From: Gammaproteobacteria bacterium
GTDB lineage: Bacteria > Pseudomonadota > Gammaproteobacteria > JAKEHO01
Length of the DNA stretch: 64,000 nt
Direction: 5' to 3'
Assembly (NCBI GenBank): GCA_027296625.1
Contig: JAPUIX010000183.1
Coordinates: forward strand, 61,329 to 125,328
Both the position numbers and the translations under genes were made by a program. The notes under the pieces are model-generated. The model saw nothing but the letters and a program-made list of their open reading frames with translations. It was not told the origin of the DNA and made no database searches. Numbering within the stretch: position 1 is the first letter of the stretch; each line of letters starts with the position of its first letter. Shown here piece after piece: positions 5,949 to 63,962 of this stretch.

Positions 5949-6584
5949 TTGATCATGAATGCCACTGTGATGCGCATTGCCTTGATCCTCGTTTTGGTAA
6001 CGGGCCTGTCCCCATCCCCTCCAGCGCACGCAAGGATCAAGTGCTGGACAAACAAAGATGACGTAAGGGAATGTGGTAATGTTGTTCCGCCAGAGTATTC
6101 ACAAAAAGGACATGAAGAACTCAGCGATCAGGGGATTGTCATTGACAGAAAAGAAAGGGCCAAAACTCCAGAGGAGCTGGAAGAGGAGCGACGGCTCGCG
6201 GCTATCCAGGCAGAGGAAGACCGTAAGGCCAGGAAGAAAGAGATCGCCGATCGGGTCTTGTTAGATACATTTGCGAGCGAGGACGATCTTGTTCTGGCCC
6301 AGGATGGCAAACTTGCTGCAATCGAACAAACCATTCATGTCACAGAAAGCCGCATTAAGAAGCTACAAAAGAGCCTAAATGAGATTATGAGCATGGCGGC
6401 CGAAATGGAACGTCGCGGCAAGCCGCCGGCCGATGGAACCCAAAACGAGATCGATGTGGTGCGTGCACAGATCGCAGAGAACCGCGCCTACATTAAGACC
6501 TTGCATAAGGAACAGGATGCGGTGCGCAACGCCTTTGAGTCTGATCTGACGCGCTTCAAAGAGTTAAAGGCCGCAGGAAGATAA
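5949..6584 (+). CDS. secreted coiled-coil protein (DUF4124-like N-terminal module)
   Basis: Signal peptide (ALILVLVTGLSPSPPAHA), then a W..D..G..PPEY module, then about 150 aa of charged heptad-like sequence (EELEEERRLAAIQAEEDRKARKK). GC is lower than in neighbouring genes. Confidence 0.5.
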   Translation: MIMNATVMRIALILVLVTGLSPSPPAHARIKCWTNKDDVRECGNVVPPEYSQKGHEELSDQGIVIDRKERAKTPEELEEERRLAAIQAEEDRKARKKEIADRVLLDTFASEDDLVLAQDGKLAAIEQTIHVTESRIKKLQKSLNEIMSMAAEMERRGKPPADGTQNEIDVVRAQIAENRAYIKTLHKEQDAVRNAFESDLTRFKELKAAGR

Positions 6585-6586
6585 GC

Positions 6587-7180
6587 TTAGCCAAACAAGC
6601 CCTGCGAGAGCGTCGCCCACTGCTCCTCCCAGAAACTGGTCGGAGAGGTATGAAAGCCGCTCTGTACATACTGCAGCATTTTCCCTTCCGCGTGCGCCAC
6701 GAGCAGGTTCGCTGTGACGGTCGGCGATCCCTTCGGCTGCAAGCCCGGGCTTAGAGTGCTTTCACGCAAGATCTGTTTCAATTGCATCTCAAAGCGATCG
6801 AAAAATTGTACGACACGCGTCCGAAGGCGCTCATTCTCGCCGACTAGCGCATCGCCGACAAGGATGCGTGTGATACCGGGATTTCGTTCAGAAAATCCCA
6901 AGAGCAACTTCAAGATACCCTGACAGCGCTTCACGACATCAGACTCATCCGACAGTATACGGTTTGTGAGACCAAATACTGAATCCTCCGCGAACCCGAT
7001 CAGATCCTCAAACATCTTCGCCTTGCTAGCAAAGTGCCGATAAAGTGCTGCCTCAGACACGCCGACGGCTGTGGCAAGCCTAGCCGTGGTGATTCGCGTA
7101 CCGGGCTGGTTCTCAAGCTCGCGGGCCAACGCTTCCAAAATCTGCTGCCGCCGACTCGGTTTCGCCTTAGCATCTTTCAT
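6587..7180 (-). CDS. slmA: nucleoid occlusion factor SlmA (TetR family)
   Basis: 197-aa TetR-fold ORF. Its N-terminal HTH (RITTARLATAVGVSEAALYRHFASKAKMF) and LLLGFSERNPGITRIL segment match SlmA closely. It lies downstream of argB/dut/coaBC as in Pseudomonas. Confidence 0.8.
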   Translation of the reverse strand: MKDAKAKPSRRQQILEALARELENQPGTRITTARLATAVGVSEAALYRHFASKAKMFEDLIGFAEDSVFGLTNRILSDESDVVKRCQGILKLLLGFSERNPGITRILVGDALVGENERLRTRVVQFFDRFEMQLKQILRESTLSPGLQPKGSPTVTANLLVAHAEGKMLQYVQSGFHTSPTSFWEEQWATLSQGLFG

Positions 7181-7208
7181 CTCACTTTGCCCCCTCCCAC
7201 CTCGCCAG

Positions 7209-8159
<951 letters not shown>

Positions 8160-8230
8160 TCACACGGGCACATTAATGCTGCCTGCCCACATCTACAGAA
8201 CTCCGGTCAAAAATCGGTGGCGGCAATGCC

Positions 8231-10732
8231 TTAGAATGGTAGCGGCAATTTTGGATCCAATTCCTGAAAAACACGACGAAACGCGTCTTGGATCCGATCT
8301 AAGGCCTGCTGATCATCCCCCTCAAAGCGCAGAATCAGGTACGGGGTTGTATTGGATGGCCGGATCAGCGCCCAACCATCCGGGAAGTCTACCCGCAGGC
8401 CATCAATTGTCGTGATCTTGGCTTCATCAAATACTGCACGTTCGCAAAAATCTTTCATAAAACTTGCATGCGATCGCTCGGGCATGCTCAGCCGCAATTC
8501 AGGTGTTGCAATGCCCCCGGGGAGCTCTGCAAATACCGCCTCTGGGGATTTTTTTGACTTTCCCAGTATCTCCAGGATGCGGGCTGCAGCATAGATTGCG
8601 TCATCAAAACCGTACCACCGTTCTTTAAAAAAAATATGCCCACTCAATTCCCCCGCTAAAGGTGCATTCTCTTCCTTCATCTTGTGCTTGATGAAGGAAT
8701 GCCCGGTTTTCCACATCACAGGTTTACCTCCGTGTTCCTCGATCACACGCCTTAGATGTCGGCTGCACTTCACGTCAAAAATGATCGGCGCGCCCTTGGC
8801 ACGAGAGAGAACATCGCGAGCAAAGAGCATCATCTGTCGATCAGGCCATATGATGTTGCCCGCGCCATCGATCACGCCGAGACGATCGCCATCACCATCG
8901 AATGCGAGACCTAAATCAGCCTTTTCCTGCTTGACCCGGTCAATGAGAACTCTGAGATTCTCAGGCTGACTGGGATCAGGTTGGTGATTAGGAAAATTGC
9001 CATCGACATCACAATAGAGTTCAACCACTTCGTGGCCAAGGGCACGGAGCACTTCCGGTGCCAATGTTCCAGCGACGCCATTGCCACAGTCGATAACCAG
9101 CTTAAATGCGTGATCGAGGGCGACTGGAATTTCTTCATTGACACGTCGCATATAGTCCCCCGTGATGTCTCTCGACTTGAGCTTTCCATTGCCAGTGACC
9201 AACTTGCGCCCCGTAACGCGATCCCGCAAGGCCATCACGGCGTTACCAGACAGGGTTTCTCCATCGAGCATGATCTTGAGACCGTTATAGTTTGGCGGGT
9301 TGTGGCTACCGGTAACCATCACGCCGCTGCCTGTATTCAGATGATGGGTCGCAAAATAAACCAAGGGCGTCGGGACCATCCCGATATCAATGACATCCCT
9401 GCCAGCAGCCCTAAGCCCCTTAATGAGCGCCTCGGCCAACTCTGGGCTTGACTTCCTGCCGTCACGACCGACCACGAGTTCCTGTTGCCCCCGTTCATGC
9501 GCCTCACTGCCGATGGCGCGTCCGATGGCATGGACCGAATCCGCCGTGAGTGTCTTTCCCGCCACTCCGCGGATGTCATAGGCGCGAAAGATGCTCTTTG
9601 CCAGCGGTACCTGCTCTTCTCGCACCACCGGCGTCGCCGACGACTCCGTAACAGCTTGGGCCCTTGCACCACGCGCTGCCAGCGACGAGGGCTGAGCCAC
9701 AGCTGTACCGCCCGCATAGTGAGCTGTTTTTGGAAGCCCCGGGACCAGTCGTTCCAGGCCAGGATGCGCCCCCAGCATGATCCCTTGCACTGCGCCGGCA
9801 TAGACCGCGGTCTCTGCCATCACCTGGGCGGCATTACGCCGCCCCCGCCGGAAGATCACATACACGCTGAGTGTGCCAAGAATCACCACGACAAGGATCA
9901 GTGACTCGACGCCAATGCCCCCCGTGAGTCCCCAGAAACCAGAGCCGCTTGAACCGGGCGCGCGGCCAGGGTCCGCCGCGGCCTGGTGCCAATAAGCTAA
10001 CCGCCACCCAGTGTTGGCCACGGGCAAGACCACGAGCGCTCCTCGCGCCTTCGCCGCGCCGTCGCCCTCGTGTGCCAGCACCAGCGTCTCGCCTTCATGC
10101 ACCACTTGGTGTAACTCCGCGTAGCCCTTGGACAGTGAAAGGCCCTGCATGGCCTCACCGAGGACGCCGACGTCGACACTCAAATGCAATACGCCCACGA
10201 GCTCCCCACCGCCGTTCGTGACCCGTCGAACCATCACGATGTGCTGAGAGGGACTGCCAAAAAACAAGACTTCGGCAGGGACGGGGTCCTCTGATGCCTC
10301 CGCCTTGCGCAGTAAGTCGAGCGATGCATAGCTCAAGGGCGGGAAGGTCGAAGTGTCAACCTCGTTGACGCCTGGTTTGAGCAGCCTGAGTTTCAAGGCC
10401 GACGGAAACTGGCCCGCAAGTTCATCCCCTTTGAGACTGAGCGCGGCCTCATCCGCGCTCACGAAAAGCGTAATCACCGCCTGTTGTGTGGCCAGGTCAT
10501 TGAGCACTCGCTGGGATGCGCCCAGCCGATCCGCCAGCTGGGCGGCGAACGCACTCGCCTCCTGCTGTACGGTTTCCAGTGCCTGTTCCTGTACCTTCTC
10601 GGCACGCTCCCGATAAAAGTAGCCGCCGGTCAGCGCCAGCGCCCCTAAGACGAGCACGCCCATGGAGGCAAGCAGTACATTACGCACCGTCCGCCTTTTA
10701 AACCGTCTGTGCTTAACAGGCCCTTCGACCAT
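8231..10732 (-). CDS. algC: phosphomannomutase/phosphoglucomutase (AlgC-type), ORF carrying a ~375-aa N-terminal membrane/periplasmic extension
   Basis: The C-terminal ~455 aa (about 8231..9606) align end-to-end with P. aeruginosa AlgC (SIFRAYDIRG, active-site TGSHNPP, DGDGDR, C-terminal LPLPF). The same frame is open for a further ~375 codons upstream. That stretch encodes two predicted TM helices flanking a ~235-aa domain. The true start is uncertain. Confidence 0.85.
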   Translation of the reverse strand: MVEGPVKHRRFKRRTVRNVLLASMGVLVLGALALTGGYFYRERAEKVQEQALETVQQEASAFAAQLADRLGASQRVLNDLATQQAVITLFVSADEAALSLKGDELAGQFPSALKLRLLKPGVNEVDTSTFPPLSYASLDLLRKAEASEDPVPAEVLFFGSPSQHIVMVRRVTNGGGELVGVLHLSVDVGVLGEAMQGLSLSKGYAELHQVVHEGETLVLAHEGDGAAKARGALVVLPVANTGWRLAYWHQAAADPGRAPGSSGSGFWGLTGGIGVESLILVVVILGTLSVYVIFRRGRRNAAQVMAETAVYAGAVQGIMLGAHPGLERLVPGLPKTAHYAGGTAVAQPSSLAARGARAQAVTESSATPVVREEQVPLAKSIFRAYDIRGVAGKTLTADSVHAIGRAIGSEAHERGQQELVVGRDGRKSSPELAEALIKGLRAAGRDVIDIGMVPTPLVYFATHHLNTGSGVMVTGSHNPPNYNGLKIMLDGETLSGNAVMALRDRVTGRKLVTGNGKLKSRDITGDYMRRVNEEIPVALDHAFKLVIDCGNGVAGTLAPEVLRALGHEVVELYCDVDGNFPNHQPDPSQPENLRVLIDRVKQEKADLGLAFDGDGDRLGVIDGAGNIIWPDRQMMLFARDVLSRAKGAPIIFDVKCSRHLRRVIEEHGGKPVMWKTGHSFIKHKMKEENAPLAGELSGHIFFKERWYGFDDAIYAAARILEILGKSKKSPEAVFAELPGGIATPELRLSMPERSHASFMKDFCERAVFDEAKITTIDGLRVDFPDGWALIRPSNTTPYLILRFEGDDQQALDRIQDAFRRVFQELDPKLPLPF

Positions 10733-45670: not shown

Positions 45671-48217
<2,547 letters not shown>

Positions 48218-48337: not shown

Positions 48338-49438
48338 CTATAAACGCATGGGCATCACGACATATTGGCAGCTTGTGGAATCCTCCGGCAGGATGAGACA
48401 GCTGCTGTTGGGATCCGATACGGACAGACGTACCTTAGCGGTTTTGATCGCCGCAAGCGCATCCAGCAAATACGACACGTTAAAGCCAATTTCCATCTCC
48501 TCTCCGCCGTACTCCACCTCCATCTCCTCCTCCGCTTCTTCCTGCTCGGGATTATGCGCCAAGGCCCGCATGCTATTTGCCTGCAACAGCAACCGGATAC
48601 CACGGTACTTCTCATTGGATAAGATGGAGGCGCGTGTCAGGCCTTGACGCAAGACCGTCCGATCCCCCATGAGCACCTCATCCTGTAGCGCGGGTAACAC
48701 CCGCTGATAATCAGGGAAACGCCCGTCAATAAGCTTGGCCGTATAGCGTAGCTCAGCAAAGGTAATCTGAATATGGTTGCGTCCCACTGCCACAGCCACC
48801 TCCGTGTCACGGTCGTCTAACAAGCGCGCGAGTTCCAGTACGCCCTTGCGCGGGACGATGACCTGGAGCGGCTCCCCCACATCCACTCCAACGGGCGTAT
48901 CGCACAGCGCCAACCGGTGGCCATCCGTCGCCACGCCCCGGACTTGTCCGCTGCTTATCTCTAGCATCAGCCCATTGAGAAAATAACGAACGTCTTGATG
49001 CGCCATCGCAAAATGGGTGCTGCTGATGAGTTCCTTGAGGACATTCTGCGCAATCGTAAAGTGCACAATGGGCTCCTGAACCTCGGTTGCGGGAAATTCT
49101 TCCGCCGGCAAGGTAGCCAGCGTAAATCGACTCTTCCCTGATTGGATCACAGCGCGCCCCGTCACCACTTCAAATGCCACGGTTGCCTCATCCGGCAGCG
49201 CTCGACAGATATCGAGTAACTTGCGGGCTGGAACCGTAATCTCCCCTGGTGACTCAACCGGATGCTCAACCGTAGCAACCAACTCCACCTCCATATCGGT
49301 CGCTGTTAGCGATAGCGCATTATCTTGAGCAACCAACAACAGATTAGACAGAATGGGTAATGTCTGGCGACGTTCTACGACCCCATTTACCGTCTGCACT
49401 GGCGCGAATAGTTTTTCCCTTGGGATCGTAAATTTCAT
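48338..49438 (-). CDS. dnaN: DNA polymerase III beta sliding clamp
   Basis: Start assigned to MKFTIPREKLF (canonical DnaN N-terminus); the ORF-track start 49510 is an upstream in-frame Met inside AT-rich DNA. The C-terminus RLSVSDP...MPMRL is typical. Confidence 0.9.
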   Translation of the reverse strand: MKFTIPREKLFAPVQTVNGVVERRQTLPILSNLLLVAQDNALSLTATDMEVELVATVEHPVESPGEITVPARKLLDICRALPDEATVAFEVVTGRAVIQSGKSRFTLATLPAEEFPATEVQEPIVHFTIAQNVLKELISSTHFAMAHQDVRYFLNGLMLEISSGQVRGVATDGHRLALCDTPVGVDVGEPLQVIVPRKGVLELARLLDDRDTEVAVAVGRNHIQITFAELRYTAKLIDGRFPDYQRVLPALQDEVLMGDRTVLRQGLTRASILSNEKYRGIRLLLQANSMRALAHNPEQEEAEEEMEVEYGGEEMEIGFNVSYLLDALAAIKTAKVRLSVSDPNSSCLILPEDSTSCQYVVMPMRL

Positions 49439-49647
49439 TATTACTAGATCTATTTTATATAAGTTGAATATACTGTTGTTAGTTGCATTAATAATAAAGA
49501 TTACATACAAATTATCTTATAAAACAAATACATGACCTGTGGAAGATCTCGTGTGTTTCCCTGTGATCTGGGCCAAGAATCCTGTGGAAAAGTGGACAAT
49601 ACGCTAACCTTTTTATAAATAAAGTATTTATCCACAGAAAATCCACG
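49439..49647. other. candidate replication origin (DnaA-box cluster plus AT-rich unwinding element) in the dnaA-dnaN spacer
   Basis: The spacer is about 70% AT within a ~58% GC genome. It carries perfect TTATCCACA at 49628..49636 and TGTGGAAAA (1 mismatch, opposite orientation) at 49584..49592. TGTGGAAGA (2 mismatches) lies at 49548..49556. GATC sites are at 49447, 49555 and 49565. A long A/T tract (49452..49540) adjoins the dnaN start. Confidence 0.5.
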
Positions 49648-50994
49648 TTAAGCTGTGAGTATTCTACCCAAATTAACGTAGTCTTCATTGATGCGTTGTT
49701 CTGTGGTTCTCAGATCAGCAATCTTTCGGCAGGCATGCAGGACGGTTGTATGGTCTCGTCCCCCAAAGGCGTCCCCAATCTCGGGCAAACTGTGCGAGGT
49801 GAGTTCCTTGGAGAGCGCCATGGCCACCTGACGCGGACGGGCCACTGAACGGCTGCGGCGTTTCGACAAAAGCTCGGCAACTCGGATCTTGTAATACTCC
49901 GCCACGGTCTTCTGAATATTTTCAATCGTGACCTGCTTTTCTTGCAGGACCAACAGATCCCGGAGGGCCTCGTTGGCAAACTCCAATGTGAAGGGCTTGC
50001 CCGTTAGCCGAGCATTGGCGACGACTCTGTTTAATGCACCTTCAAGCTCGCGGACGTTAGAGCGAAAGCGTTTCGCGATGAAAAAGGCCACTTCATCAGG
50101 CAGCGCGATATGGGCCTGGCTGGCCTTGCTCTTCAAGATGGCCACCCGTGTTTCCAGCTCCGGCGGCTCGATTGCCACAGTCAATCCCCATCCCAAGCGG
50201 GATTTCAATCGCTCTTCAAGGCCCGATACCTCTTTAGGGTATCGATCGCAGGTCAAAATGATCTGATGTTGACCCTCGAGTAGTGCGTTAAAGGTATGAA
50301 AAAACTCTTCCTGCGAGCGTTCCTTGCCCGCGAAAAATTGAATGTCATCAATCAACAAGGCATCAACGGACCGGTAATAGCGCTTGAACTTATTCATCGC
50401 ATTGTGCTGAAGCGCCCTGACCATGTCTGCAACGAAGCGTTCCGAGTGTAAGTACGTGACCGTAGCACTTCCGTTACGCTGCATGATCACACTGCCGATG
50501 GCGTGCATGAGATGTGTCTTGCCTAAACCGACCCCACCATAGATGAATAATGGGTTATAGGCGTCCCCAGGATTTTCAGCAACTTGGAGCGAGGCAGCTC
50601 GCGCGAGCTGATTGGACTTTCCTTCGACAAAATTTTCAAAGGTGAAATGACGATTCAGGCCTGTGACGTTTCGTCGTTCATTACGCCTTTTGAGCTCAGT
50701 CGTTGTCGTGAGCGAGGGGTCGGCCTGATATACTCGTGGCGCTTTCGGTGTCCGGCTGCCGACCTCGATGCGTACGTTATAACCGCCGCCGTCTTGTGTC
50801 TGGCCGAGAAGCTCTTTGATTCGTGAAAAATATTGTTCATTGACCCAGTCTAAAACGAAGCGATTGGGAGCCAATAGGCGTAAAACGCCACCGTCGTCAA
50901 TGGCGTGGAGTGGACGAATCCAGGTATTAAATTGTTGTGGCGAGAGTTCTCCTTCCAAGCGTTCGAGACATTGCTGCCACAATGAGACCCCCAC
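49648..50994 (-). CDS. dnaA: chromosomal replication initiator protein DnaA
   Basis: N-terminus [20 protein letters not shown]+ Walker [11 protein letters not shown], and the C-terminal DnaA-box-binding domain. Confidence 0.95.
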
Positions 50995-51059
50995 AATTTA
51001 ACCCCCTGGATTGAAAGGACGCCGGAAGAGTGGGAGAAGTTTATACCCGATGCGGCCAC

Positions 51060-51068
51060 TTATCCACA
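51060..51068 (+). promoter_or_regulatory. consensus DnaA box TTATCCACA in the rpmH-dnaA divergent promoter region
   Basis: Perfect 9-mer. A TTGACA hexamer at 51101..51106 is a candidate rpmH -35 element. Confidence 0.5.
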
Positions 51069-51181
51069 CCCAGTTTTCGATTTTTCTCACAGCCGGAATG
51101 TTGACAATTGATTTTAATGACGATTAACATTCACTGCTTTTATTTCTGGTTATTTTCATTCGACCATATCAGTCTTTAGCC

Positions 51182-51316
51182 ATGAAGCGGACCTTCCAGC
51201 CGAGCAGAATCAAGCGAAAACGTCGACATGGTTTTCGTGCAAGAATGAGCACGAAAGCTGGCCGACTGGTCCTCAAAGCGCGCAGAGCTAAGGGACGGAA
51301 GAGGCTTAGCGCGTAG
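51182..51316 (+). CDS. rpmH: 50S ribosomal protein L34
   Basis: Hand-translated [44 protein letters not shown] (44 aa); a canonical L34. It is not in the ORF track. Confidence 0.9.
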
Positions 51317-51327
51317 AATATCCCGTT

Positions 51328-51690
51328 GTGGATCGGAGAGTTCGATGCTTTGGGAAGGAGGCAAGACTTTCTCGCCCAAAGGACTATCAACGCGTCTTTG
51401 AATCAGCTTGTCGTTCGGTTGATGGATGTCTCATTGTGTTGGCCAGGGAAAATGGCCTTGATCATGCGCGTCTGGGCTTTGCCATTTCTCGAAGCCATAT
51501 CAAAACGGCAGTAAACCGTAACCGCATCAAACGTCTTGTGCGGGAGAGTTTCCGCAATCACCAGGCTGAGTTGCGTGGACTGGATGTTGTAGTTATTGCG
51601 CGTAAGTCGACAGCGGGGTTTACTAAACAGTCACTGTTATCATCCCTGTCACATCACTGGCAAAGGCTAGTTCCATGCAAAGATTCCTGA
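51328..51690 (+). CDS. rnpA: ribonuclease P protein component
   Basis: 120-aa basic protein with the RNR motif ([11 protein letters not shown]) immediately after rpmH. Confidence 0.85.
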
Positions 51691-51917
51691 TCGGCCTCAT
51701 TCGGCTGTATTCGTATTCTCTAAGTCCCTTTCTTGGCGCGCGTTGTCGCTTCTATCCTACCTGCTCGTCGTATGCGAGAGTGGCGATCGAACAACATGGG
51801 CCCTTAGGGGGAGCATGGCTTGCTATCCGCCGGTTGTGTGCATGCCATCCTTTTCATCCCGGTGGTTATGATCCGGTACCAACAACAGCGGTCAATCACC
51901 TCGATGGACACCACTAG
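51675..51917 (+). CDS. yidD: membrane protein insertion efficiency factor YidD
   Basis: YidD motif [10 protein letters not shown]. It overlaps rnpA and yidC. Confidence 0.8.
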
Positions 51918-53553
51918 GTTAATTCTCGTTGTTTCCTTAGGACTTGTCTCGCTGTTGATCTGGCAGGCTTGGCAGCAAGAGTATGGAATAGCTCCCTCGG
52001 GACGCGAAGCGCCAGTCGCGAGCCCGGAGGCGGTCGAAGGACCAGCCGATGTGCCAACCGTGGTTTCAGAGGAGCAACCGGAGAGTCCTGAAGCGCTCCA
52101 GGAAACCGTTCAAAGTCCACTTGAAAGTGCTCAGCGTATTTATGTTCACACCGACGTTCTGGACGTAGAGATCGATACCCGAGGGGGGGATATCCGCACC
52201 GCAAAACTCTTGAAGTACCCCGTCTCGGTGAAACAGCCTGATGAACCGTTCCAATTGTTGAACGATACGCCCCCAATGATCTTTCTCGTGCAGGGCGGGT
52301 TTCGTACCCATGATCCAGCTCCCACCCATCACGCTGTCTATCAGGTGGCTGAGACAGAGTATCGTCTTGAAGAAGGCAGCGACGAGATACGTATCCCTCT
52401 GACCTGGCATTCCGAAAATGGCCTGTCGGTTACAAAGGTGTATACCTTTCAGCGTGGCAGTTACTTGATTGATATGTCCTATGAGGTGGATAACCGTACA
52501 CAGAAACCATGGAGAGGCCACCTCTACGGCCAGCTGCAACGCAATGAAAGCGATAATGGTAATTCAAGATTCATCTACACATACACAGGCGCGGCCATCT
52601 CAAGTCCAGACAACCGCTACGAAAAGATCAAATTTAAGGCAATGGAGGAGCAGAACTTAAGTCGTAATATCAAAGATGGCTGGATTGCCATGTTGCAACA
52701 TTATTTTGTCGCCGCCCTGATACCAGATCCTGGTAGAGAATACCATTATTACACTTTGGCACTTGGGGACGGTCGCTACATTGCGGGATTGTATGGTCCT
52801 GAACAAGCGATTGCACCCAACGGGCGAGGAACTTTTCAGCTTAGGGTATATGTAGGGCCTAAGATTCAGAAAACGCTTGCGGCGATCGCTCCCGATTTGG
52901 ATTTGACGGTCGACTATGGTTGGTTGTGGTTTATTGGTCAGCTGTTGTTTTGGTTATTGGAAAAGCTGTTTGTAATTACTGGCAACTGGGGTTGGGCGAT
53001 TGTGCTCGTTACGATCGTCATAAAAGCACTATTTTTCCCGCTTTCCGCGGCAAGTTATCGTTCCATGGCAAATATGCGACGGGTCCAACCACGGATGATG
53101 GCGGTAAGGGAACGCTTTGGGAATGACCGAGCGCGCATGAATCAGGCGATGATGGAATTGTATAAGGAGGAAAAGATCAATCCACTCGGCGGATGTTTGC
53201 CAATCGTCGTGCAGATTCCAGTGTTTATTGCACTATATTGGGTGTTACTCGAAAGTGTGGAGCTGCGCCAGGCTGACTTCATGTTATGGATTCATGACTT
53301 ATCAACGCGTGATCCGTACTTTGTGTTGCCGCTCTTGATGGGTGTCAGCATGTTTTTGCAACAGAAGCTTAATCCTGCTCCGATCGATCCTGTGCAAGCG
53401 AAAGTAATGCAGTTGATGCCAGTCATCTTCACGTTTTTTTTCGCGTTTTTTCCCGCCGGATTGGTCCTTTACTGGCTGGTTAATAACATTCTATCGATCG
53501 CCCAGCAGTGGCTGATTACACGGAGGATTGCGCAAGTGGGCCAACATGCTTAG
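51904..53553 (+). CDS. yidC: membrane protein insertase YidC
   Basis: Start assigned to [14 protein letters not shown] (TM1). It has a large periplasmic domain and a conserved C-terminal five-TM core. Confidence 0.9.
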
Positions 53554-53584
53554 CTGCACACGATCACCGATCGCCTCGTCAAAC

Positions 53585-54937
53585 ATGGCCCTAGCTCCTG
53601 ACACGATTGCGGCAGTGGCGACGCCACCGGGCCGAGGCGGGATTGGGATTGTACGGGTCTCTGGGCCGCTGGTTGCAACGATTGCACGCTCGCTCGTTGG
53701 GTGCGAAATCGTACCTCGGCAGGCCGCGTTCTGTGCATTTAAGGATGGTCAGGGGGAGGTGATCGACCGTGGCATCGCGCTGTTCTTCCCCGGGCCAAAA
53801 TCCTTTACTGGGGAAGACACCCTGGAGGTGCAGGGACATGGGGGTCCTGTGGTGATGGATATGTTGCTGCAGCGGACGCTGGAGCTCGGTGCCCGAGTGG
53901 CCCGTCCAGGTGAGTTCTCGGAACGGGCGTTCCTCAATGGTAAAGTGGATTTGACGCAAGCCGAAGCGATCGCTGATCTCATTGACAGTGCCTCTCAGCA
54001 GGCTGCTCGATGTGCAATGCGTTCACTTGAAGGTGGATTTTCAAGTAAGACGAAAGAGTTAGTTAATTTGTTGGTGGACTTGCGCACGTATATCGAAGGC
54101 GCATTGGACTTTCCTGAAGAAGAGATCGATTTTCTTGAAGATTCGCAGATCCAAAAACGTTTGCGTTCATTTATAAGCCGGGCCGATCGCCTCTACAGGG
54201 AGGCCGAGCAGGGTTGCCTACTTCGGGAAGGGATGCGGATTGCCATCATCGGCCGACCAAACGTGGGCAAGTCAAGCTTGTTAAATCGTCTTGCCGATCG
54301 GGACTCTGCCATCGTCACCCCAGTGCCTGGCACAACGCGGGACATCATCTCCGAGGAAATTCTGATTGACGGATTGCCGATCCGTGTCGCGGATACGGCA
54401 GGATTGCGCGTGGCGAGAGACGTGGTGGAAGAGGAAGGAATACGGCGCACCTGGCAAGCCGTGGAGCGCGCCGATCGTATTCTGTTTGTCGTGCAATCAG
54501 GGAACGGGATAGAAGGGGAAGATCAGAAACTCCTTCATCGCTTCCAGAAAAGTGGCGGCGTTACAATCGTGCACAACAAGATCGATCTGACAGAAGCACA
54601 ACCCGGGGTCGAGGAACGCAATCAAGTTTTAAATGTCTATGTCTCGGCGAAAACCGGCGAAGGCATCGACTTATTACGGGGGCACCTCAAGGCCTGTGTG
54701 GGCTACAAGCCTGTGAGCGAAGGGGGTTTTATGGCGCGGCGGCGCCATTTAGAGGCGCTGGGCCGAGCGCGGGCGCTTGTTCAAAGGGGTCTCGATCAGC
54801 TAACGGCACATCGTGCAGGCGAGCTGCTCGCGGAAGATCTCCGTCTTGCACAGCAGGCGTTTGGGGAAATCACCGGGGAGGTGACGTCGGACGATCTGCT
54901 GGGGGCGATCTTTTCCCGCTTTTGCGTTGGCAAGTAG
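53585..54937 (+). CDS. mnmE: tRNA modification GTPase MnmE
   Basis: Start assigned to MALAPDTIAAVATPPG. G-domain motifs GRPNVGKSS and DTAGLR, and the C-terminal CVGK tetrapeptide. Confidence 0.9.
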   Translation: MALAPDTIAAVATPPGRGGIGIVRVSGPLVATIARSLVGCEIVPRQAAFCAFKDGQGEVIDRGIALFFPGPKSFTGEDTLEVQGHGGPVVMDMLLQRTLELGARVARPGEFSERAFLNGKVDLTQAEAIADLIDSASQQAARCAMRSLEGGFSSKTKELVNLLVDLRTYIEGALDFPEEEIDFLEDSQIQKRLRSFISRADRLYREAEQGCLLREGMRIAIIGRPNVGKSSLLNRLADRDSAIVTPVPGTTRDIISEEILIDGLPIRVADTAGLRVARDVVEEEGIRRTWQAVERADRILFVVQSGNGIEGEDQKLLHRFQKSGGVTIVHNKIDLTEAQPGVEERNQVLNVYVSAKTGEGIDLLRGHLKACVGYKPVSEGGFMARRRHLEALGRARALVQRGLDQLTAHRAGELLAEDLRLAQQAFGEITGEVTSDDLLGAIFSRFCVGK

Positions 54938-57762: not shown

Positions 57763-58575
57763 TTAATCGAACTCGGCTTCGTCCAGCCCCGTAGCGCTGT
57801 CGAGGCCAGTGATTGAATCCTTGCCTTGGATCCCTATAAAGATCGCTTCGTGCAACTTAGCCCCGGCGAGATTCGCGCCACTCAAATTAGCTCCGGTGAA
57901 GTCAGCTTTCCTGAGGTCGCAGTTGGAGAGATCCGCATTGCTGAGATTGGCATTCGTCAACGAGGCAAACTTCATTTCACAACCGGAAAGATCAGCATCA
58001 GTGAGATCCGCCCCTGTCAGATTTGCCTTGACCAGAAAGATCCGCAGCTTACCCATCGGCTGATTCTTCATGTTGGCCCCTGCTCGCGCCTTGACGAGCT
58101 TTGCCCCTTCGAGGTTCGCGCGCTCGACGTTTGCGATGATCCGGGCACCGGATAGATCCGCCCCCTTGAGGTTGGCATCGCCCAGTACCACACCGAAGAG
58201 GCTGGCGTTACGCAAGTTCGCCCCTTCCAGATCGGCGCCACGCATTATCGTGATGTCCATGTTGGAATTCTCGAAGTTCGAGCCCTTAAGTGAGACGTTT
58301 TTCATGTGGGTCCCAAAGAGGTTTGCGCCCTTAAAATCAATCCCGGACATATCCTGGCCTCGAAAATCCTTATTTTGCAGATCCGGGACTTCCCCTGAGG
58401 GAGTGTTGGCGATGATCTCGAGGACTTCCTCACGGGTAATCGGTTGCCAGTCTGTTTCGGTCGCGAAAGTGGCCGGGGATGGCACCACGATTGTCACTAT
58501 CAGGGCAAAGGCCCCGGCGAGGGCGATCTCGCGAAGGACGTCGGGCCCTCGAAAGACAGGTTGACGCTTCATCAT
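57763..58575 (-). CDS. secreted pentapeptide-repeat protein
   Basis: Signal peptide (ALAGAFALIVTIVVPSPATFA) followed by more than 30 tandem A(D/N)LxG-type pentapeptides. Its start codon overlaps the ArsR-family gene stop (ATGA). Confidence 0.8.
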   Translation of the reverse strand: MMKRQPVFRGPDVLREIALAGAFALIVTIVVPSPATFATETDWQPITREEVLEIIANTPSGEVPDLQNKDFRGQDMSGIDFKGANLFGTHMKNVSLKGSNFENSNMDITIMRGADLEGANLRNASLFGVVLGDANLKGADLSGARIIANVERANLEGAKLVKARAGANMKNQPMGKLRIFLVKANLTGADLTDADLSGCEMKFASLTNANLSNADLSNCDLRKADFTGANLSGANLAGAKLHEAIFIGIQGKDSITGLDSATGLDEAEFD

Positions 58576-58934
58576 CGTACGCCTCCTTCATTATCGTTAC
58601 ATTGCTGCTGATATCGACCGCGCACACAGTCGATGATTCCTTTTAATTGCGGCTTCCGAACCGAGTAATAGACGGCTCGGCCCCTGTGTTCACTTTGAAG
58701 CAGGCCCTTTCCCTCCATAAGGCGGAGGTGGCCGCTCGTGGCAGGTTGGGCAAGTCCACACAGGCTTGCAATCTCATCCACGGTGTACTCGCCATGGAAC
58801 AGGATTTCGATCATGCGAAGGCGATTGGGATGGGCTACGCATTTGAGGCATTCGGTGGCCTCTCTCAGAAAATCAAGAGGCAGTAACGCCGTGTCCAGTG
58901 TTTTATTTGTTCCGCGTTTCGCAACCAATGCCAT
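58572..58934 (-). CDS. ArsR/SmtB-family metalloregulatory transcriptional repressor
   Basis: Winged-helix HTH (PNRLRMIEILFHGEYTVDEIASLCGLAQPATSGHLRLM) with an N-terminal CLKC cysteine pair. Confidence 0.8.
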   Translation of the reverse strand: MALVAKRGTNKTLDTALLPLDFLREATECLKCVAHPNRLRMIEILFHGEYTVDEIASLCGLAQPATSGHLRLMEGKGLLQSEHRGRAVYYSVRKPQLKGIIDCVRGRYQQQCNDNEGGVR

Positions 58935-59091
58935 CGAGTGGCCTCCAGTTAATCTCTGTAGGCGGGGGACTTATTTAACTGTCAACATATATCATACATT
59001 CTATATTATGGTAAATCGCAGCAATCCATTGCCTAATAGGCACCCGTTACGGTTATCTGCAAATAGGTTGTTCGATTCGGATCGTGTTTGG

Positions 59092-59793
59092 ATGAGACTC
59101 TTCCGTTTCATGTTGATTGCAAGTGTCGCAGCGAGTCTCCAGGGATGTGAGCGTTCTGATGCAGACTATTTTCCGTTGAATGAAGGACGCTGGTGGCAAT
59201 ATCGGGTGATGGTGAAGACAAAGGATGAACAAAAACAATATAAATATATGGTCGCTAATCTCCCAAGCCACGATTTAGACGGTACTAAGACATTTGTACG
59301 CAGGACCCATGACGGAAGCCTTTTTTTCTATCAAGAAGGGGATGAAGGGATCAATCGTGTTGCTGTGAAGCGGCGGACAGATAGGGAGATCAAACGAGAA
59401 GCGTCAAAGCATTTGATTATTCCCTATCCAACGGAGATTGGCAGCGCATGGGAGTTGGAGACAACAACAACGATTCTGGATAGAAACATTCGGGCGTTTG
59501 AGAGGAAACAATTTACGCTGGTTGTGCCCGTTATGCTGCAGTATACAGTGGAAAGTTTGGATGATACCGTCAGCGTACCCGCCGGTCGATTCGCTCGCTG
59601 TCTGCGTATTCGAGGAATTGGGCATACGCGTGTTAACCCAAACGTAAGTGTGGGTGTGACCGATATTGAGATTGAGATCATTGACTGGTATGCGCCCGGG
59701 GTTGGGCTGGTTAGGACGATTCGCAAGGAAGAGGCAAGCACAGCAGTGCTCGATTCGGGGGAATATTTATTTGAACTCGAGTCACTGAACTAA
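59092..59793 (+). CDS. hypothetical lipoprotein
   Basis: The signal peptide plus lipobox (MRLFRFMLIASVAASLQGC) sets the start inside ORF 58738..59793. GC is about 45%, well below the window average. Confidence 0.55.
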   Translation: MRLFRFMLIASVAASLQGCERSDADYFPLNEGRWWQYRVMVKTKDEQKQYKYMVANLPSHDLDGTKTFVRRTHDGSLFFYQEGDEGINRVAVKRRTDREIKREASKHLIIPYPTEIGSAWELETTTTILDRNIRAFERKQFTLVVPVMLQYTVESLDDTVSVPAGRFARCLRIRGIGHTRVNPNVSVGVTDIEIEIIDWYAPGVGLVRTIRKEEASTAVLDSGEYLFELESLN

Positions 59794-59821
59794 AGTGTGA
59801 TCAAATGGAGCGAGCCAAGCG

Positions 59822-61975
59822 ATGAGTATCAAAAAAGTCTTGCTCGTCACTGCACTTGTTGTTTTGGTATTTAGTGTTTTTGCCTTCGACCTCGGGCAGT
59901 ATTTCAATCTCGAATACTTCAAGTCGAAACAGGTGGCAGTCGACACCTACTACCAGGTCCAACCCGTCAAAACGGCATTCATCTTTTTCTGCGTTTACAT
60001 CGCGGTGACCGGCCTGTCACTACCGGGCGCAGCATTAATGACCCTCGTCGGAGGGGCGATATTTGGTTTGCTGTGGGGGACGGTCATCGTTTCATTTGCC
60101 AGTACCATTGGCGCGACTGTGGCATTCCTTGTGTCGCGTTTCTTGCTGCGTGATGTGGTGCAGAATAAATTTGGCAATCGTTTGAAGACCGTCAACAAGG
60201 AGATCCAGAAAGACGGCGCTTTTTATCTGTTTGCCCTCCGGCTCGTGCCAGCATTTCCGTTTTTTATTATTAATCTGGTTATGGGGCTCACTCCCATGCG
60301 CACGCTTACGTTTTTCATCGTCAGCCAAGCGGGCATGTTGGCTGGCACCATTGTCTACGTGAATGCGGGTACGCAAATTGCGAAAATTGAAACGCTGGTG
60401 GGCGTCCTGTCCCCGGAGCTTGTTGGCTCGTTTGTTTTGTTAGGCATCTTCCCACTCATCGCAAAAAAAACAGTCGAAATTATAAGAGCACGCAGAGTAT
60501 TGCGGCGCTATCAGAAGCCGAAAGCATTCGGTCGCAACATGGTTGTGATCGGCGCAGGGTCGGCGGGTCTTGTGGCCGCCTACATTGGGGCTGCGGTCAA
60601 GGCCAAGGTGACGCTTGTTGAAAAGGACAAAATGGGGGGGGAATGTCTGTATACCGGTTGCGTTCCCTCGAAGGCGCTGATCCGCTCGGCTAAATTCATC
60701 GCCCAAGCGAAGAGGGCCGAGCAGTTTGGATTTAAGGCGGTGAGTGCTGAGTTCGAATTTGCGCGGGTGATGGAGCGTGTTCAGCGGGTCATCAAGACCA
60801 TAGAGCCCCACGACTCAGTGGAGCGCTACACCGAGTTGGGTGTTGAATGTATCCACGGCGAGGCCAAGATCACCTCGCCCTATACGGTGGAAGTGAATGG
60901 CGAGACATTAACGACGCGCAGTATCGTCATTGCCACCGGTGGACAGCCGATTGTGCCACCCATCCCGGGGATCCAGGATGTCGGGTTCCTCACCTCGGAT
61001 ACGGTGTGGGGGATCCGTGAATTGCCGAAACGGCTCGTGGTATTAGGAGGCGGATCGGTTGGTGCTGAATTGACACAAGCCTTTGCGCGTTTCGGCAGCC
61101 AAGTCACGCAAGTTGAGATGGCACCGCGGATCTTGATGCGGGAAGATCCGGAATTCTCGGGGCTGATCGCGGAATGCTTCCGTGGTGAGGGGATCGATGT
61201 GCGTGTTGATTGTCGGGCCAAGGAATGTCGAATTGAAAGCGGCCAGAAAGTGCTGGTGTGTGAATACCAAGGCAAGGATGTCAGTATCGAATTTGACGAA
61301 TTGCTGGTTGCTGTTGGCCGCACAGCAAGTACCCGCGGCTTTGGGCTCGAGGATCTCGGGATCGGGAGCGGTCCTGACGGCACTGTGGACGTGAATGAGT
61401 ATTTGCAAACCATCTATCCGAATATCTATGCGTGTGGTGATGTGGCGGGCCCCTATCAATTTACCCACGTGGCCGCCCATCAGGCGTGGTACGCCGCCAT
61501 CAATGCGTTATTTGGCGGCATCAAGAAATTCAGAGTGAACTACTCGGCGATCCCTTGGGCGACGTTTACGGATCCGGAGATTGCGCGCGTTGGCCTCAAT
61601 GAAGAGGAAGCAAAGGAAAAAGCAATTAATTATGAGGTGAGTACCTACGGCATCGACGACCTGGACCGCGCCATTGCGGATGAAGAGCCGCGCGGTTTGA
61701 TCAAGGTGCTGACCGTGCCGAAAAAGGACAAGATCTTGGGGGTTACGATCGCTTGTGATCATGCGGGTGAGGTGATTGCTGAATATGTGGCGGCCATGCG
61801 TCACGGGATCGGCCTAAACAAGATCCTGGGCACGATCCACGTTTATCCAACCATGGCCGAGGCCAACAAGTATGTGGCTGGCGAGTGGCGACGTGCCCAT
61901 GCGCCGCAGTGTCTGCTGCGTTGGATTGCACGCTACCATGCCTGGCGGCGAAGTGAGTCATTTGCCAGATCTTGA
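59822..61975 (+). CDS. fusion protein: N-terminal DedA/TVP38 (SNARE-associated) membrane domain plus C-terminal class-I FAD/NAD(P)H pyridine-nucleotide-disulfide oxidoreductase
   Basis: Residues 1..~215 are a multi-TM DedA-like module (GLSLPGAALMTLVGGAIFGLLWG). Residues ~240..717 have an FAD GxGxxG (VVIGAGSAGLVAA), the redox-active disulfide GGECLYTGCVPSK and an NAD(P) GxGxxG (VVLGGGSVGAEL). The C-terminal interface His-Glu (HVYPTMAE) is present; there is no C-terminal Cys pair and no NmerA domain. GC is lowered. Confidence 0.8.
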   Translation: MSIKKVLLVTALVVLVFSVFAFDLGQYFNLEYFKSKQVAVDTYYQVQPVKTAFIFFCVYIAVTGLSLPGAALMTLVGGAIFGLLWGTVIVSFASTIGATVAFLVSRFLLRDVVQNKFGNRLKTVNKEIQKDGAFYLFALRLVPAFPFFIINLVMGLTPMRTLTFFIVSQAGMLAGTIVYVNAGTQIAKIETLVGVLSPELVGSFVLLGIFPLIAKKTVEIIRARRVLRRYQKPKAFGRNMVVIGAGSAGLVAAYIGAAVKAKVTLVEKDKMGGECLYTGCVPSKALIRSAKFIAQAKRAEQFGFKAVSAEFEFARVMERVQRVIKTIEPHDSVERYTELGVECIHGEAKITSPYTVEVNGETLTTRSIVIATGGQPIVPPIPGIQDVGFLTSDTVWGIRELPKRLVVLGGGSVGAELTQAFARFGSQVTQVEMAPRILMREDPEFSGLIAECFRGEGIDVRVDCRAKECRIESGQKVLVCEYQGKDVSIEFDELLVAVGRTASTRGFGLEDLGIGSGPDGTVDVNEYLQTIYPNIYACGDVAGPYQFTHVAAHQAWYAAINALFGGIKKFRVNYSAIPWATFTDPEIARVGLNEEEAKEKAINYEVSTYGIDDLDRAIADEEPRGLIKVLTVPKKDKILGVTIACDHAGEVIAEYVAAMRHGIGLNKILGTIHVYPTMAEANKYVAGEWRRAHAPQCLLRWIARYHAWRRSESFARS

Positions 61976-62107: not shown

Positions 62108-62644
62108 ATGCGTTTGGCATTGTTTTTGATTGGCCTCGCGGTCGTTGTTTTTGTATCGGCCGAGGTGTACGAGTCAGTTGATGCAGAAGGGAATGCCACG
62201 TACTCCGATGAGCCATCGCCGGGCGCGACGCAGATCGATGTGCCAGACGTGCAGACAGTTGCGCCCGATGCGCCAGCGCCACCGCCCCCCACGATAAAGC
62301 CGCTCTCCCCGGCGGAAACGAAAGCCTTTGCGGGTTACCGAGAAGTGAGTCTGGTGATCGCATCGGGTGAAGATCCGACAAGCGTATGGTTAGAAACGGG
62401 TGGCTTGCCAGTGAGTGTTGCGCTAGTGCCAAAACTCCAAGCTCAGCTCGGACATACCCTTGAGTTACTTGTCAACGGCAGAGCCGTCTCCCCACCTGGG
62501 ACCGCCACTACGTTCAAGGTCACTGATCTGGATCCCGGCGCGTACAGCCTCCAGGCGGTGGTACTCAATTCGCATGGTAACGAAATTGCCAGGTCTGCAA
62601 CTGATACCGTGTATGTTCACCACCACAGGCGCCATCATCGTTAG
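62108..62644 (+). CDS. DUF4124 domain protein
   Basis: Signal anchor MRLALFLIGLAVVVFVSA, then the characteristic VYESVDAEGNATYSDEP module and a Pro/Ala linker. Confidence 0.6.
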   Translation: MRLALFLIGLAVVVFVSAEVYESVDAEGNATYSDEPSPGATQIDVPDVQTVAPDAPAPPPPTIKPLSPAETKAFAGYREVSLVIASGEDPTSVWLETGGLPVSVALVPKLQAQLGHTLELLVNGRAVSPPGTATTFKVTDLDPGAYSLQAVVLNSHGNEIARSATDTVYVHHHRRHHR

Positions 62645-62792: not shown

Positions 62793-63962
62793 TCATCGCC
62801 TTCTGAGCTGTGCGGCTATGTCGCGGAGAAGGGTCTTGACGGCGAGCTCGGCCCGCTTTCTCACGGCCTCAGCTTTTTCCTTGATGCGCTGCATCTGTGC
62901 TTTTTGTCGTTCCAGGAGCTCGGGCGGAAATTGAATGGCTTCCATTTTGTCATGCTCACGTCGCCACTCCTGTACCTCTCGTTCTAACTGCTTGCGCAAT
63001 TTTTCCTGGTATTTTTGTTGCCTTAATATTTGCTCCTTGCTTGCCTTCTTGGCCGCTTGAGCCTCCTTTTGGATCTGTCTGGCTGCTTCGAGTTGTTTGC
63101 CGGCCTGACTAACCTCGGCTTCCCTCGCATCCATCTCGGCGTGTAGGCGCTTTTCAGCGGCGCGTTGGCGTACGGGATCAGCGGAAAGGCTTTTTCCGCG
63201 TACCCGTGCTGCTTGCTTTTCTGCCTCACGCCATGCGGTCTCTGCCTCTTCTTTAGCGCGCCGTGCCTTTTCTAAAGCATCCTGTATCCTCTGTGCCTCC
63301 AATTTTTGTCTTTCGCGTTCAGCCTGAAGTTTGGCTTTCTCTTCAGCGCGCCTTTGCTCAAGCGCTTCCTTATATTCAGCAATGATCTTTTCAGATTCTT
63401 CTGCTGCGGCTCGGCGTGCGGCTTCGGTGGCATGTTTCTCTTGTCGCGCCTGTTCTAACTCCTGCGTGTGTCGCGCGAACGCGGCCTCAAGCTTTCGGCG
63501 TTCTTCAGTGATATTGATCTTGATCTCCTCGCGAAGCCTTTTTTCAATTGTGAGTTGTTCAAGGTGTTTTCTTTCCAGCTCCTCCCTAATGCTCTGGATC
63601 TTGCCTAGCTCCTCTGCGTTGTGCGCATAGGTAGCCTCTAACTGTGATTTTTCTTCACGTAGCTTTTGCTCCGCTTCTTGCTTAAGCTGTTGTATCTTTT
63701 CTGCTTCTTCCTTGTGCCTTTTGGCGGCATCGGCTTCTGCCTTCCGTTTGGCCTCCTCTATCCCTAATCTAAGGCGCTGTGCTTCCTTGAGGGCTTGGCT
63801 TGCGTGGACGGCCTCTGATTCAATTTTGTTCCGTTCTGAACGAAGTTGGTCGGCTGCACTTTTTTGCGCCATCTGTTTGGCCACTTCGGCTTCGGATTTC
63901 AGTCTCAGGGCTTCTTCAAGTTGCATGGTGGCCTTCGCGAGGTCTGCCTTCAGAGCGGACAC
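62793..63962 (-). CDS. E/K/R/Q/A-rich coiled-coil protein (probably 5'-truncated by the window end)
   Basis: 389 aa of nearly uninterrupted charged heptad-like repeats (AEAAKKAAEEAEKQAA-like). No globular domain was recognised. Confidence 0.5.
   Translation of the reverse strand: MSALKADLAKATMQLEEALRLKSEAEVAKQMAQKSAADQLRSERNKIESEAVHASQALKEAQRLRLGIEEAKRKAEADAAKRHKEEAEKIQQLKQEAEQKLREEKSQLEATYAHNAEELGKIQSIREELERKHLEQLTIEKRLREEIKINITEERRKLEAAFARHTQELEQARQEKHATEAARRAAAEESEKIIAEYKEALEQRRAEEKAKLQAERERQKLEAQRIQDALEKARRAKEEAETAWREAEKQAARVRGKSLSADPVRQRAAEKRLHAEMDAREAEVSQAGKQLEAARQIQKEAQAAKKASKEQILRQQKYQEKLRKQLEREVQEWRREHDKMEAIQFPPELLERQKAQMQRIKEKAEAVRKRAELAVKTLLRDIAAQLRRR

Follow-up and report, generated by a model that had tools for sequence, protein, structure and literature searches.

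Among the domain fusions of DedA proteins of the COG0398 group, those with PF07992 and PF02852 are the commonest, and these reductase fusions have been loosely tied to aerobic metabolism (PMC10127716, 2023, mBio). RefSeq/PGAP names them [quoted passage not shown], a name carried on 20+ plasmid records. The stretch analysed here, called the window below, comprises 64,000 nucleotides (64 kb) of contig JAPUIX010000183.1 from a Gammaproteobacteria bacterium (assembly GCA_027296625.1). It holds a gene for such a fusion, whose product is identical to NCBI entry MCZ6719861.1, titled [quoted passage not shown]; the named plasmid-borne members are 53-59% identical to it over 95-96% of the query. The architecture is known and named; its family is uncharacterised, and the window gene, which has been catalogued before, is an ordinary member, so that the novelty implied by an earlier interpretation made from the letters alone (the sequence-only reading) was overstated. 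What this analysis adds is the recurrent association of the family, in operons of other genomes, with the radical-SAM enzyme ArsS and a set of further partners. This association is absent from the searchable literature: the literature searched mentions the architecture (PMC10127716) and no link of the fusion to arsenosugar genes. The explanation favoured below has two layers, an anchored reductase and an accessory role in the synthesis of a metalloid-containing lipid, and its rough probability is put at 0.45. The gene and the parts of its product are the following.

59822..61975, plus strand: coding sequence of the DedA-reductase fusion, 717 residues
59822..60463, plus strand: TVP38/VTT-type DedA membrane domain, residues 1-214 (Pfam and hydropathy; topology by analogy with TMEM41B)
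60464..60535, plus strand: basic linker KKTVEIIRARRVLRRYQKPKAFGR, residues 215-238 (conserved in homologues; charge pattern)
60536..61870, plus strand: class-I flavoprotein disulfide reductase domain with FAD, NAD and dimerisation parts, residues 239-683 (Pfam, NCBIfam, Foldseek)
60551..60568, plus strand: FAD-binding GxGxxG motif GAGSAG, residues 244-249 (translation of the coordinates)
60644..60661, plus strand: redox-active CxxxxC, C275-LYTG-C280 (translation, homologue alignments)
60806..60829, plus strand: family-specific motif PHDSVERY, residues 329-336 (alignments)
61046..61117, plus strand: NAD(P)H-binding region from GGGSVG (residues 409-414, nucleotides 61046-61063) through Glu432 (HMMER alignment, translation)
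61844..61861, plus strand: Y675-PTMA-E680, a MerA-like Tyr-Glu pair replacing the His-Glu dyad (HMMER alignments)
61871..61972, plus strand: basic and aromatic C-terminal tail with two predicted helices (alignments, AlphaFold2 model)

The open reading frame (ORF) runs uninterrupted from its ATG start through 717 codons to the stop. Pfam identifies, in this order, VTT_dom/DedA (PF09335, residues 68-184, 76.6 bits for a cut-off of 33.9), Pyr_redox_2 (PF07992, residues 239-555, 209.3 bits, E 1e-61) and Pyr_redox_dim (PF02852, residues 577-683, 101.2 bits, E 5e-29), the latter two above their gathering scores. The sequence-only reading was thus right to describe a single continuous polypeptide in which a DedA module is joined to a complete class-I disulfide reductase. 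Scanned by themselves against NCBIfam, the first 235 residues matched no family. A frameshift had been envisaged in the junction, around 60450..60530. None is seen there: 31 homologues from independent assemblies align collinearly with the junction (residues 209-238, nucleotides ~60446-60535) and show position-by-position conservation over it, F210, P211, L212, P233 and F236 being invariant. The collinear architecture, 700-750 residues long, is found in the best 120 of more than 8000 database matches, in at least 325 species-level genomes and in 92 plasmid records, finished isolates among them, while 23 near-identical sequences originate from different independent samples. Since the architecture is so widespread in independent assemblies, the gene is a true fusion; an artefact of assembly or frameshift joining two genes, in favour of which nothing was found, is for practical purposes ruled out by the collinear homologues and the conserved linker.

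The reductase domain harbors the hallmarks of class-I enzymes: two GxGxxG dinucleotide folds, a CxxxxC disulfide in the FAD domain and a C-terminal dimerisation domain. Both dinucleotide folds and the CLYTGC disulfide had been recognised correctly from the sequence; no substitution of C275 or C280 occurs among 32 close homologues, and 46 of 49 diverse fused homologues possess both. The dimer-interface His-Glu pair, in contrast, had been misread. In HMMER alignments to proteins of solved structure, the query segment "tihvYPTMAE" faces "tvhpHPTLSE" in the Thermus dihydrolipoyl dehydrogenase (LipDH, or E3) and "lfpYLTMVE" (Tn501) or "lapYLTMAE" (Lysinibacillus) in MerA. The column of the LipDH catalytic His is therefore occupied by Tyr675, with Glu680 five residues further on, and the HPxxxE acid-base dyad of class-I reductases is absent. 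His673, two residues before Tyr675, is not the catalytic base and is less conserved than Tyr675, which is kept in 46 of 49 fused homologues (34-61% identity) and in 52 of 55 stand-alone relatives. Together, CxxxxC and Tyr675/Glu680 are conserved across homologues of 34-97% identity. Glu432, which closes the second Rossmann strand (beta2), falls in the same column as a Glu of NADH-dependent LipDH, a position without Glu in MerA; this suggests that the domain prefers NADH.

The closest characterised relatives are MerA (Tn501, PDB 1zk7; Lysinibacillus, PDB 5x1y) and LipDH (Thermus, PDB 2eq6), and Foldseek places the reductase fold equally near both (TM 0.83-0.88), no other family being re-found. 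With MerA the window protein shares the class-I fold, the CxxxxC and a Tyr where LipDH has its catalytic His (Y535 in Tn501; YPTMAE against YLTMVE/YLTMAE). MerA differs by its C-terminal Cys-Cys, its NmerA domain, its Tyr194 and the lack of an equivalent of Glu432; the window protein differs by its fused DedA domain, the NADH-type Glu432, a sub-threshold MerA profile score and the absence of a mer operon. The region of the second Hg-ligand Tyr of MerA is occupied by PHDSVERY (in general form P-H-D-S-x-E-R-Y), which has no Tyr at that place: the Tn501 Y194 column aligns with V333/S332. As the sequence-only reading had noticed, neither the C-terminal Cys pair nor NmerA is present. A vicinal Cys pair is lacking, the tail having a single Cys697 that is not conserved in the homologue alignments, and the Pfam search of the window protein revealed no HMA/NmerA domain. 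The tail itself is loosely conserved and is also found in the stand-alone relatives.

The equivalog cut-offs of NCBIfam point in the same direction. They stand at 454.45 for MerA (TIGR02053), 408.8 for LipDH (TIGR01350) and 620 for NF004991, the "FAD-containing oxidoreductase" family that gives the best match (491 bits, below its cut-off). The MerA profile scores 392, and true MerA was rejected on this score together with the missing CC pair and NmerA domain; the suspicion that the MerA label often given to such proteins is probably wrong is upheld on the same grounds. LipDH was rejected as well, at 380.2 bits and with its catalytic His replaced, as were GR, RclA, SthA and similar enzymes, each scoring under its own equivalog cut-off.

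A MerA-type reductase acting on Hg(II), or on Cu(II), Au(III) or Cr(VI), with the DedA domain taking over the delivery role of MerT/MerP, is quite improbable. It would account for the best match among solved structures (MerA 5x1y, 268 bits), for Tyr675 in the MerA Tyr column, for the 392 bits with TIGR02053, for the ArsR/SmtB-family metalloregulator divergently transcribed in the window and for the ECF/NrsF-type sigma systems (ECF, extracytoplasmic function) that accompany plasmid homologues. It does not fit the sub-threshold score, the absent Cys pair and NmerA, the unmatched Y194 or the NADH-type Glu432, which differs from the NADPH site of MerA. Nor does it fit the gene context: no merR, merT or merP lies near the window gene (window genes and following 10 kb), and no mer genes occur in any homologous locus examined.

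With LipDH the resemblance extends to the fold, both Rossmann motifs, the CxxxxC and the beta2 Glu, and the label "lipoamide-dehydrogenase-like" of the sequence-only reading can be retained for the fold and probably also for the site of NADH binding. It cannot be retained for the active-site chemistry, given Tyr675-Glu680. The window protein further departs from E3 by its sub-threshold TIGR01350 score, its membrane tether and the lack of a 2-oxoacid dehydrogenase context. A membrane-tethered E3, or a glutathione-type disulfide reductase, is accordingly very improbable: the 380.2 bits, the equally close fold and the JGI label "E3 component" on homologues speak for it, and the replacement of His by Tyr in essentially all family members, the score below 408.8 and the absence of adjacent E1 or E2 genes speak against it.

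The N-terminal domain belongs to the TVP38/VTT branch of DedA proteins (E. coli YdjX/YdjZ, TMEM41B/VMP1; COG0398), with which it shares PF09335, the PG and PxxP turns and the general layout; its core is 31% identical to a stand-alone "TVP38/TMEM64 family protein". Unlike these, it carries an extra 500-residue C-terminal flavoenzyme, predicted to be cytoplasmic, and its scramblase or transport activity is putative. The VTT protein TMEM41B possesses four transmembrane helices and two re-entrant loops, with both termini inside, as established by cysteine accessibility (bioRxiv 10.1101/2020.12.18.423352). Hydropathy and charge yield a comparable layout for the window protein: a transmembrane helix at 5-22, a first re-entrant loop turning at P68-G69, a helix at 82-103, a basic loop, a second re-entrant loop turning at P143/P146 (PAFPF), and helices at 162-181 and ~199-214. 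The signature of VTT/DedA domains, two re-entrant loops with Pro/Gly turns flanked by transmembrane helices, is therefore recognisable at the sequence level. Lys and Arg residues concentrate in loop 104-135 (7) and in segment 214-240 around the linker (10), a positive-inside pattern that agrees with the accessibility (SCAM) result for TMEM41B, the AlphaFold model of the DedA part being of low confidence.

By analogy, the DedA domain is predicted to form four transmembrane helices and two re-entrant loops in an N-in/C-in arrangement, and the reductase domain to lie on the cytoplasmic face of the membrane, because the basic linker at 215-238 would place it there and because an FAD/NADH enzyme must be cytoplasmic. 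The periplasm-oriented product proposed in the sequence-only reading conflicts with both the charge pattern and the cofactors. We regard the architecture of the fusion protein as near-certain and its predicted orientation as highly probable. An AlphaFold2 model computed from a 32-sequence alignment has a mean predicted local distance difference test score (pLDDT) of 69.8, good in the reductase and poor in the DedA part. To note, several stand-alone soluble relatives (P0214, P0222, P0245, P0250 and others) carry, instead of the DedA domain, a conserved ~35-residue N-terminal extension of the form "...HPxDWxNPxP...Y", and another relative (P0184) a single N-terminal transmembrane helix.

The surroundings of the homologues were surveyed in 80 species-level genome loci, in which ORFs were called and clustered; recurrent clusters were identified with NCBIfam and Pfam and re-counted by tblastn, one neighbour cluster ("c3") being ignored as spurious antisense ORFs in high-GC loci. 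At least one partner gene lies within 5 kb of the fusion in 53 of the 80 loci. Most frequent are ArsS (22 loci; 458 bits for a cut-off of 300), a TIGR04283 transferase (22 loci; 255 bits, cut-off 182), a DUF547 protein (21 loci), a TIGR04282/DUF2064 transferase (20 loci; 212 bits, cut-off 134), a DUF3047 protein (20 loci) and a TIGR03169 oxidoreductase (19 loci), the DUF identities being from Pfam and that of TIGR03169 from NCBIfam. An ArsM-like methyltransferase, whose profile score is below the cut-off, occurs in 10 loci. The partner genes mostly share the strand of the fusion, with small gaps. The association is scattered over the entire family tree, clades adjoining that of the window included, and spans Gamma- and Betaproteobacteria as well as Desulfuromonadaceae.

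Several loci illustrate the conserved and variable parts of these operons. In a Polaromonas metagenome-assembled genome (L044) the order is ArsS, two transferases, ArsM, fusion, DUF547 and DUF3047; at 8401-9715 of this locus, two genes for YHS-domain "(seleno)proteins" and an ATP-grasp gene follow the operon. On the Acinetobacter portensis plasmid pJNE5-X3_NDM-1 (PGAP annotation) the order is arsS, fusion, DUF547, TIGR04283, TIGR04282, a methyltransferase and a phosphate transporter, with overlapping stops and starts, and the operon is adjoined by a methylthioadenosine (MTA) phosphorylase gene (mtnP) and a sterol-desaturase-family gene. The Catenovulum and Pseudoalteromonas chromids (L089 and L091, Alteromonadales) present a TonB receptor, the fusion, DUF547, an ABC importer (substrate-binding protein, ~580-residue permease and ATPase), a CDP-alcohol phosphatidyltransferase and a sterol desaturase, which looks like the import of a head-group precursor followed by the synthesis of an unusual phospholipid. 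A further arrangement, DUF2282-DUF692-DNA-binding-DoxX-fusion, is found on a K. pneumoniae NDM-5 plasmid (L086) and a B. thailandensis plasmid (L088), together with a second FAD oxidoreductase, an ABC transporter and a CDP-alcohol phosphatidyltransferase or both transferases; genes for ECF sigma/anti-sigma factors (NrsF, zf-HC2), AhpD-like and HAD proteins lie nearby. The same island resides on Klebsiella, Providencia and Citrobacter plasmids with NDM carbapenemase genes.

Candidatus Propionivibrio aalborgensis (L007, 2782-7142) has two tandem copies of the fusion, of 740 and 713 residues, directly 3' of its ArsS gene. A second radical-SAM family, a distant relative of ArsS with a Cys-rich C-terminus, replaces ArsS beside the fusion in some loci (L023, L070, L075, L008, L072 and L079); it scores 56 bits with TIGR04167, and its best match is the Rv1681 family at 91 bits.

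These features can be assembled into a mechanism. Electrons would pass from NADH, through the Glu432-type site, to FAD and on to the C275/C280 dithiol. Tyr675 stands where the catalytic His would be, as a Tyr does in MerA, and on this ground the substrate is argued to be a thiol-binding metal(loid) or another electrophile, not an ordinary disulfide. Class-I reductases are obligate homodimers, so that dimerisation of the fusion would pair two DedA domains. ArsS adenosylates trivalent dimethylarsenic, DMAs(III), and thereby starts arsenosugar synthesis (PMC13598754). From the recurrent operon partners in other genomes, we infer at the family level that the fusion would be an accessory part of a pathway building a metalloid-containing, most likely arsenosugar-type, phospholipid with ArsS, the two transferases, the ArsM-like methyltransferase, MTA phosphorylase, CDP-alcohol phosphatidyltransferase, importers, DUF547 and DUF3047. 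The reductase would keep an arsenic (or selenium) intermediate, or a Cys/Sec motif of a partner, reduced at the membrane, and transport of the lipid-linked product across the inner membrane would fall to the DedA domain. The probability of this metalloid-lipid role is roughly one in three.

Fusions of DedA domains to lipid enzymes have served as an argument that the DedA domain flips the corresponding lipid (PMC10193950). The examples, DedA-MprF, DedA-CDP-OH phosphatidyltransferase and DedA-phospholipase D, share with the present family the logic of coupling a DedA domain to an enzyme acting on the transported lipid, and in several genomes a member of the family shares its operon with a CDP-alcohol phosphatidyltransferase gene. 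The partner here is, however, a redox flavoprotein and not a lipid synthase. In its boldest form the proposal would assign to the fusion a membrane step so far missing from the bacterial biosynthesis of arsenosugar phospholipids, or of other organo-metalloid lipids, with the window copy as an unlinked member. At the inner face of the membrane, dimethylarsenic, a selenium species or the Cys/Sec motif of ArsS would be kept in the reduced state by the MerA-like dithiol domain, and flipping of the phospholipid so produced would be the task of the COG0398 DedA domain. This stronger version is unlikely.

A more general role has to be weighed against the metalloid-lipid pathway. The protein might serve membrane-proximal redox maintenance unconnected with arsenic. 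With NADH as its electron source, the reductase would then act on some oxidant associated with the membrane, for instance a quinone, a disulfide or persulfide soluble in lipid, or a reactive species of chlorine or thiocyanate, and the DedA domain would be chiefly an anchor or phospholipid scramblase. The window copy, which lacks pathway partners and sits in a housekeeping region ~9 kb from dnaA, would suit such a function, as would the 27 of 80 loci devoid of partner genes. The same holds for the tie of COG0398-reductase fusions to aerobic metabolism and the reported restriction of COG0398 to aerobic lineages (PMC10127716), for the commonness of soluble stand-alone relatives with the Tyr-Glu site, and for some plasmid contexts of stress-regulon type, with ECF sigma/anti-sigma, AhpD-like, peroxiredoxin-like, thioredoxin and DoxX genes. 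It leaves unexplained the tight, translationally coupled position of the fusion between arsS and the DUF547 and transferase genes in many lineages, and the loss of the catalytic His speaks against ordinary disulfide exchange. Redox maintenance of this kind is considered rather unlikely.

Several observations weigh against the layered explanation itself. The first concern the window: ArsS, both transferases, the ArsM-like methyltransferase, DUF547, DUF3047, TIGR03169 and the other recurrent neighbours are absent from its 64 kb by tblastn, and no partner genes occur in the 10 kb that follow. The subclade to which the window copy belongs in the family tree (with L001, L003 and L005) shows no partner association either, so that for the window gene the pathway link is a family-level inference. 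The "arsenosugar" labels on TIGR04283 and TIGR04282 are NCBI family names and not tested functions. Some cluster proteins are linked to selenoproteins, namely the YHS (seleno)protein and TIGR03169 ("N-terminal to SelD"), and the element could therefore be selenium, or the pathway something else. The AlphaFold2 pLDDT falls below 50 for residues 102-196; the DedA part of the model being unreliable, the interdomain geometry and the coupling of the domains cannot be judged from it. The literature searched holds no biochemical or genetic study of any member of the fusion family, which bears out the statement of the sequence-only reading that the role of the pairing is not established. Trivalent arsenicals classically inhibit reduced dithiol flavoenzymes, which makes a direct role as an arsenic reductase chemically uncertain.

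In structure the window gene is no different from the RefSeq/PGAP family, with the same order of PF09335, PF07992 and PF02852, the CxxxxC, the Tyr-Glu pair and the tail, yet in contrast to the majority of the members examined it has no ArsS, DUF547, transferase or CDP-alcohol phosphatidyltransferase neighbours. Membership of an ArsS-type cluster is thus a property of the homologues (the 53 loci and the annotated plasmids) and not of the window gene; the window copy may carry out the same reaction with unlinked genes, or have a more general role. The immediate neighbours of the window gene are the following.

58572..58934, minus strand: ArsR/SmtB-family regulator, 120 residues, divergently transcribed (profile searches)
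59092..59793, plus strand: lipoprotein upstream of the fusion, 233 residues, lipobox LQGC, weak DUF3108-like match below threshold
62108..62644, plus strand: DUF4124 protein downstream of the fusion, 178 residues, signal-anchor, His-rich C-terminus

The lipoprotein gene ends 28 nt before the fusion gene, and 132 nt separate the latter from the DUF4124 gene. A promoter-like site lies at 58979-59009. As the three genes share a strand and no terminator-like site is seen between them, their co-transcription is plausible from the sequence. The trio is common only to one relative, GCA_022614965.1, 79% identical, and is therefore a case of lineage-specific synteny; a conserved functional module of lipoprotein, fusion and DUF4124 protein was rejected for this reason. 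The transcription unit of the sequence-only reading thus survives as to strand and predicted terminators, but not as a conserved module. The G+C content, 0.53-0.63 in the flanks, is down to 0.45-0.48 at 59000-60000, where the lipoprotein gene and the 5' end of the fusion gene lie, and the lipoprotein gene may be a recent insertion. The His/Arg-rich tail of the DUF4124 protein, HHHRRHHR, could be a metal-binding motif.

The ArsR/SmtB-family protein is a possible regulator of the operon. Among NCBIfam subtypes the generic NF033788 alone passes, BigR, CmtR and others remaining far below their cut-offs; the Cys residues are at positions 29, 32, 59, 103 and 111. Its gene overlaps by 4 nt that of a 270-residue pentapeptide-repeat protein with an N-terminal signal-like segment, and the pair (57763-58934, minus strand) diverges from the lipoprotein and fusion genes. 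Further out, ~9 kb separate the fusion gene from dnaA, and the surroundings are those of the chromosomal origin: the minus strand carries gyrB (45671-48211), dnaN (48338-49510) and dnaA (49648-50994), the plus strand yidC (51820-53553) and mnmE (53528-54937), and dnaA and yidC leave between them ~800 nt (about 51000-51800) as a candidate oriC/rpmH-rnpA region. At the other end of the window, a Glu/Lys/Arg/Ala-rich ORF without Pfam match (62793-63962, minus strand) is the C-terminal coiled-coil of an 804-residue protein with cNMP-binding and rhodanese domains that continues past the window (6259-8673 of locus L085); a second rhodanese gene lies ~8 kb beyond it.

The hypothesis put forward here addresses the substrates of COG0398/TVP38 DedA proteins and the purpose of their commonest fusion partner. 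It rests on the MerA-like Tyr-Glu site, the predicted cytoplasmic orientation and the recurrent operon partners, ArsS, the "arsenosugar" transferases, DUF547 and CDP-alcohol phosphatidyltransferase. It holds that the family would make and translocate a metalloid-containing phospholipid, and its function would thereby become experimentally approachable. If the fusion were the missing membrane step, a COG0398 DedA protein would for the first time have a defined substrate. Clinical NDM plasmids of Klebsiella, Providencia, Citrobacter and Acinetobacter are among the carriers of the family, so that a part played in the tolerance of metalloids or stress would also be of practical interest.

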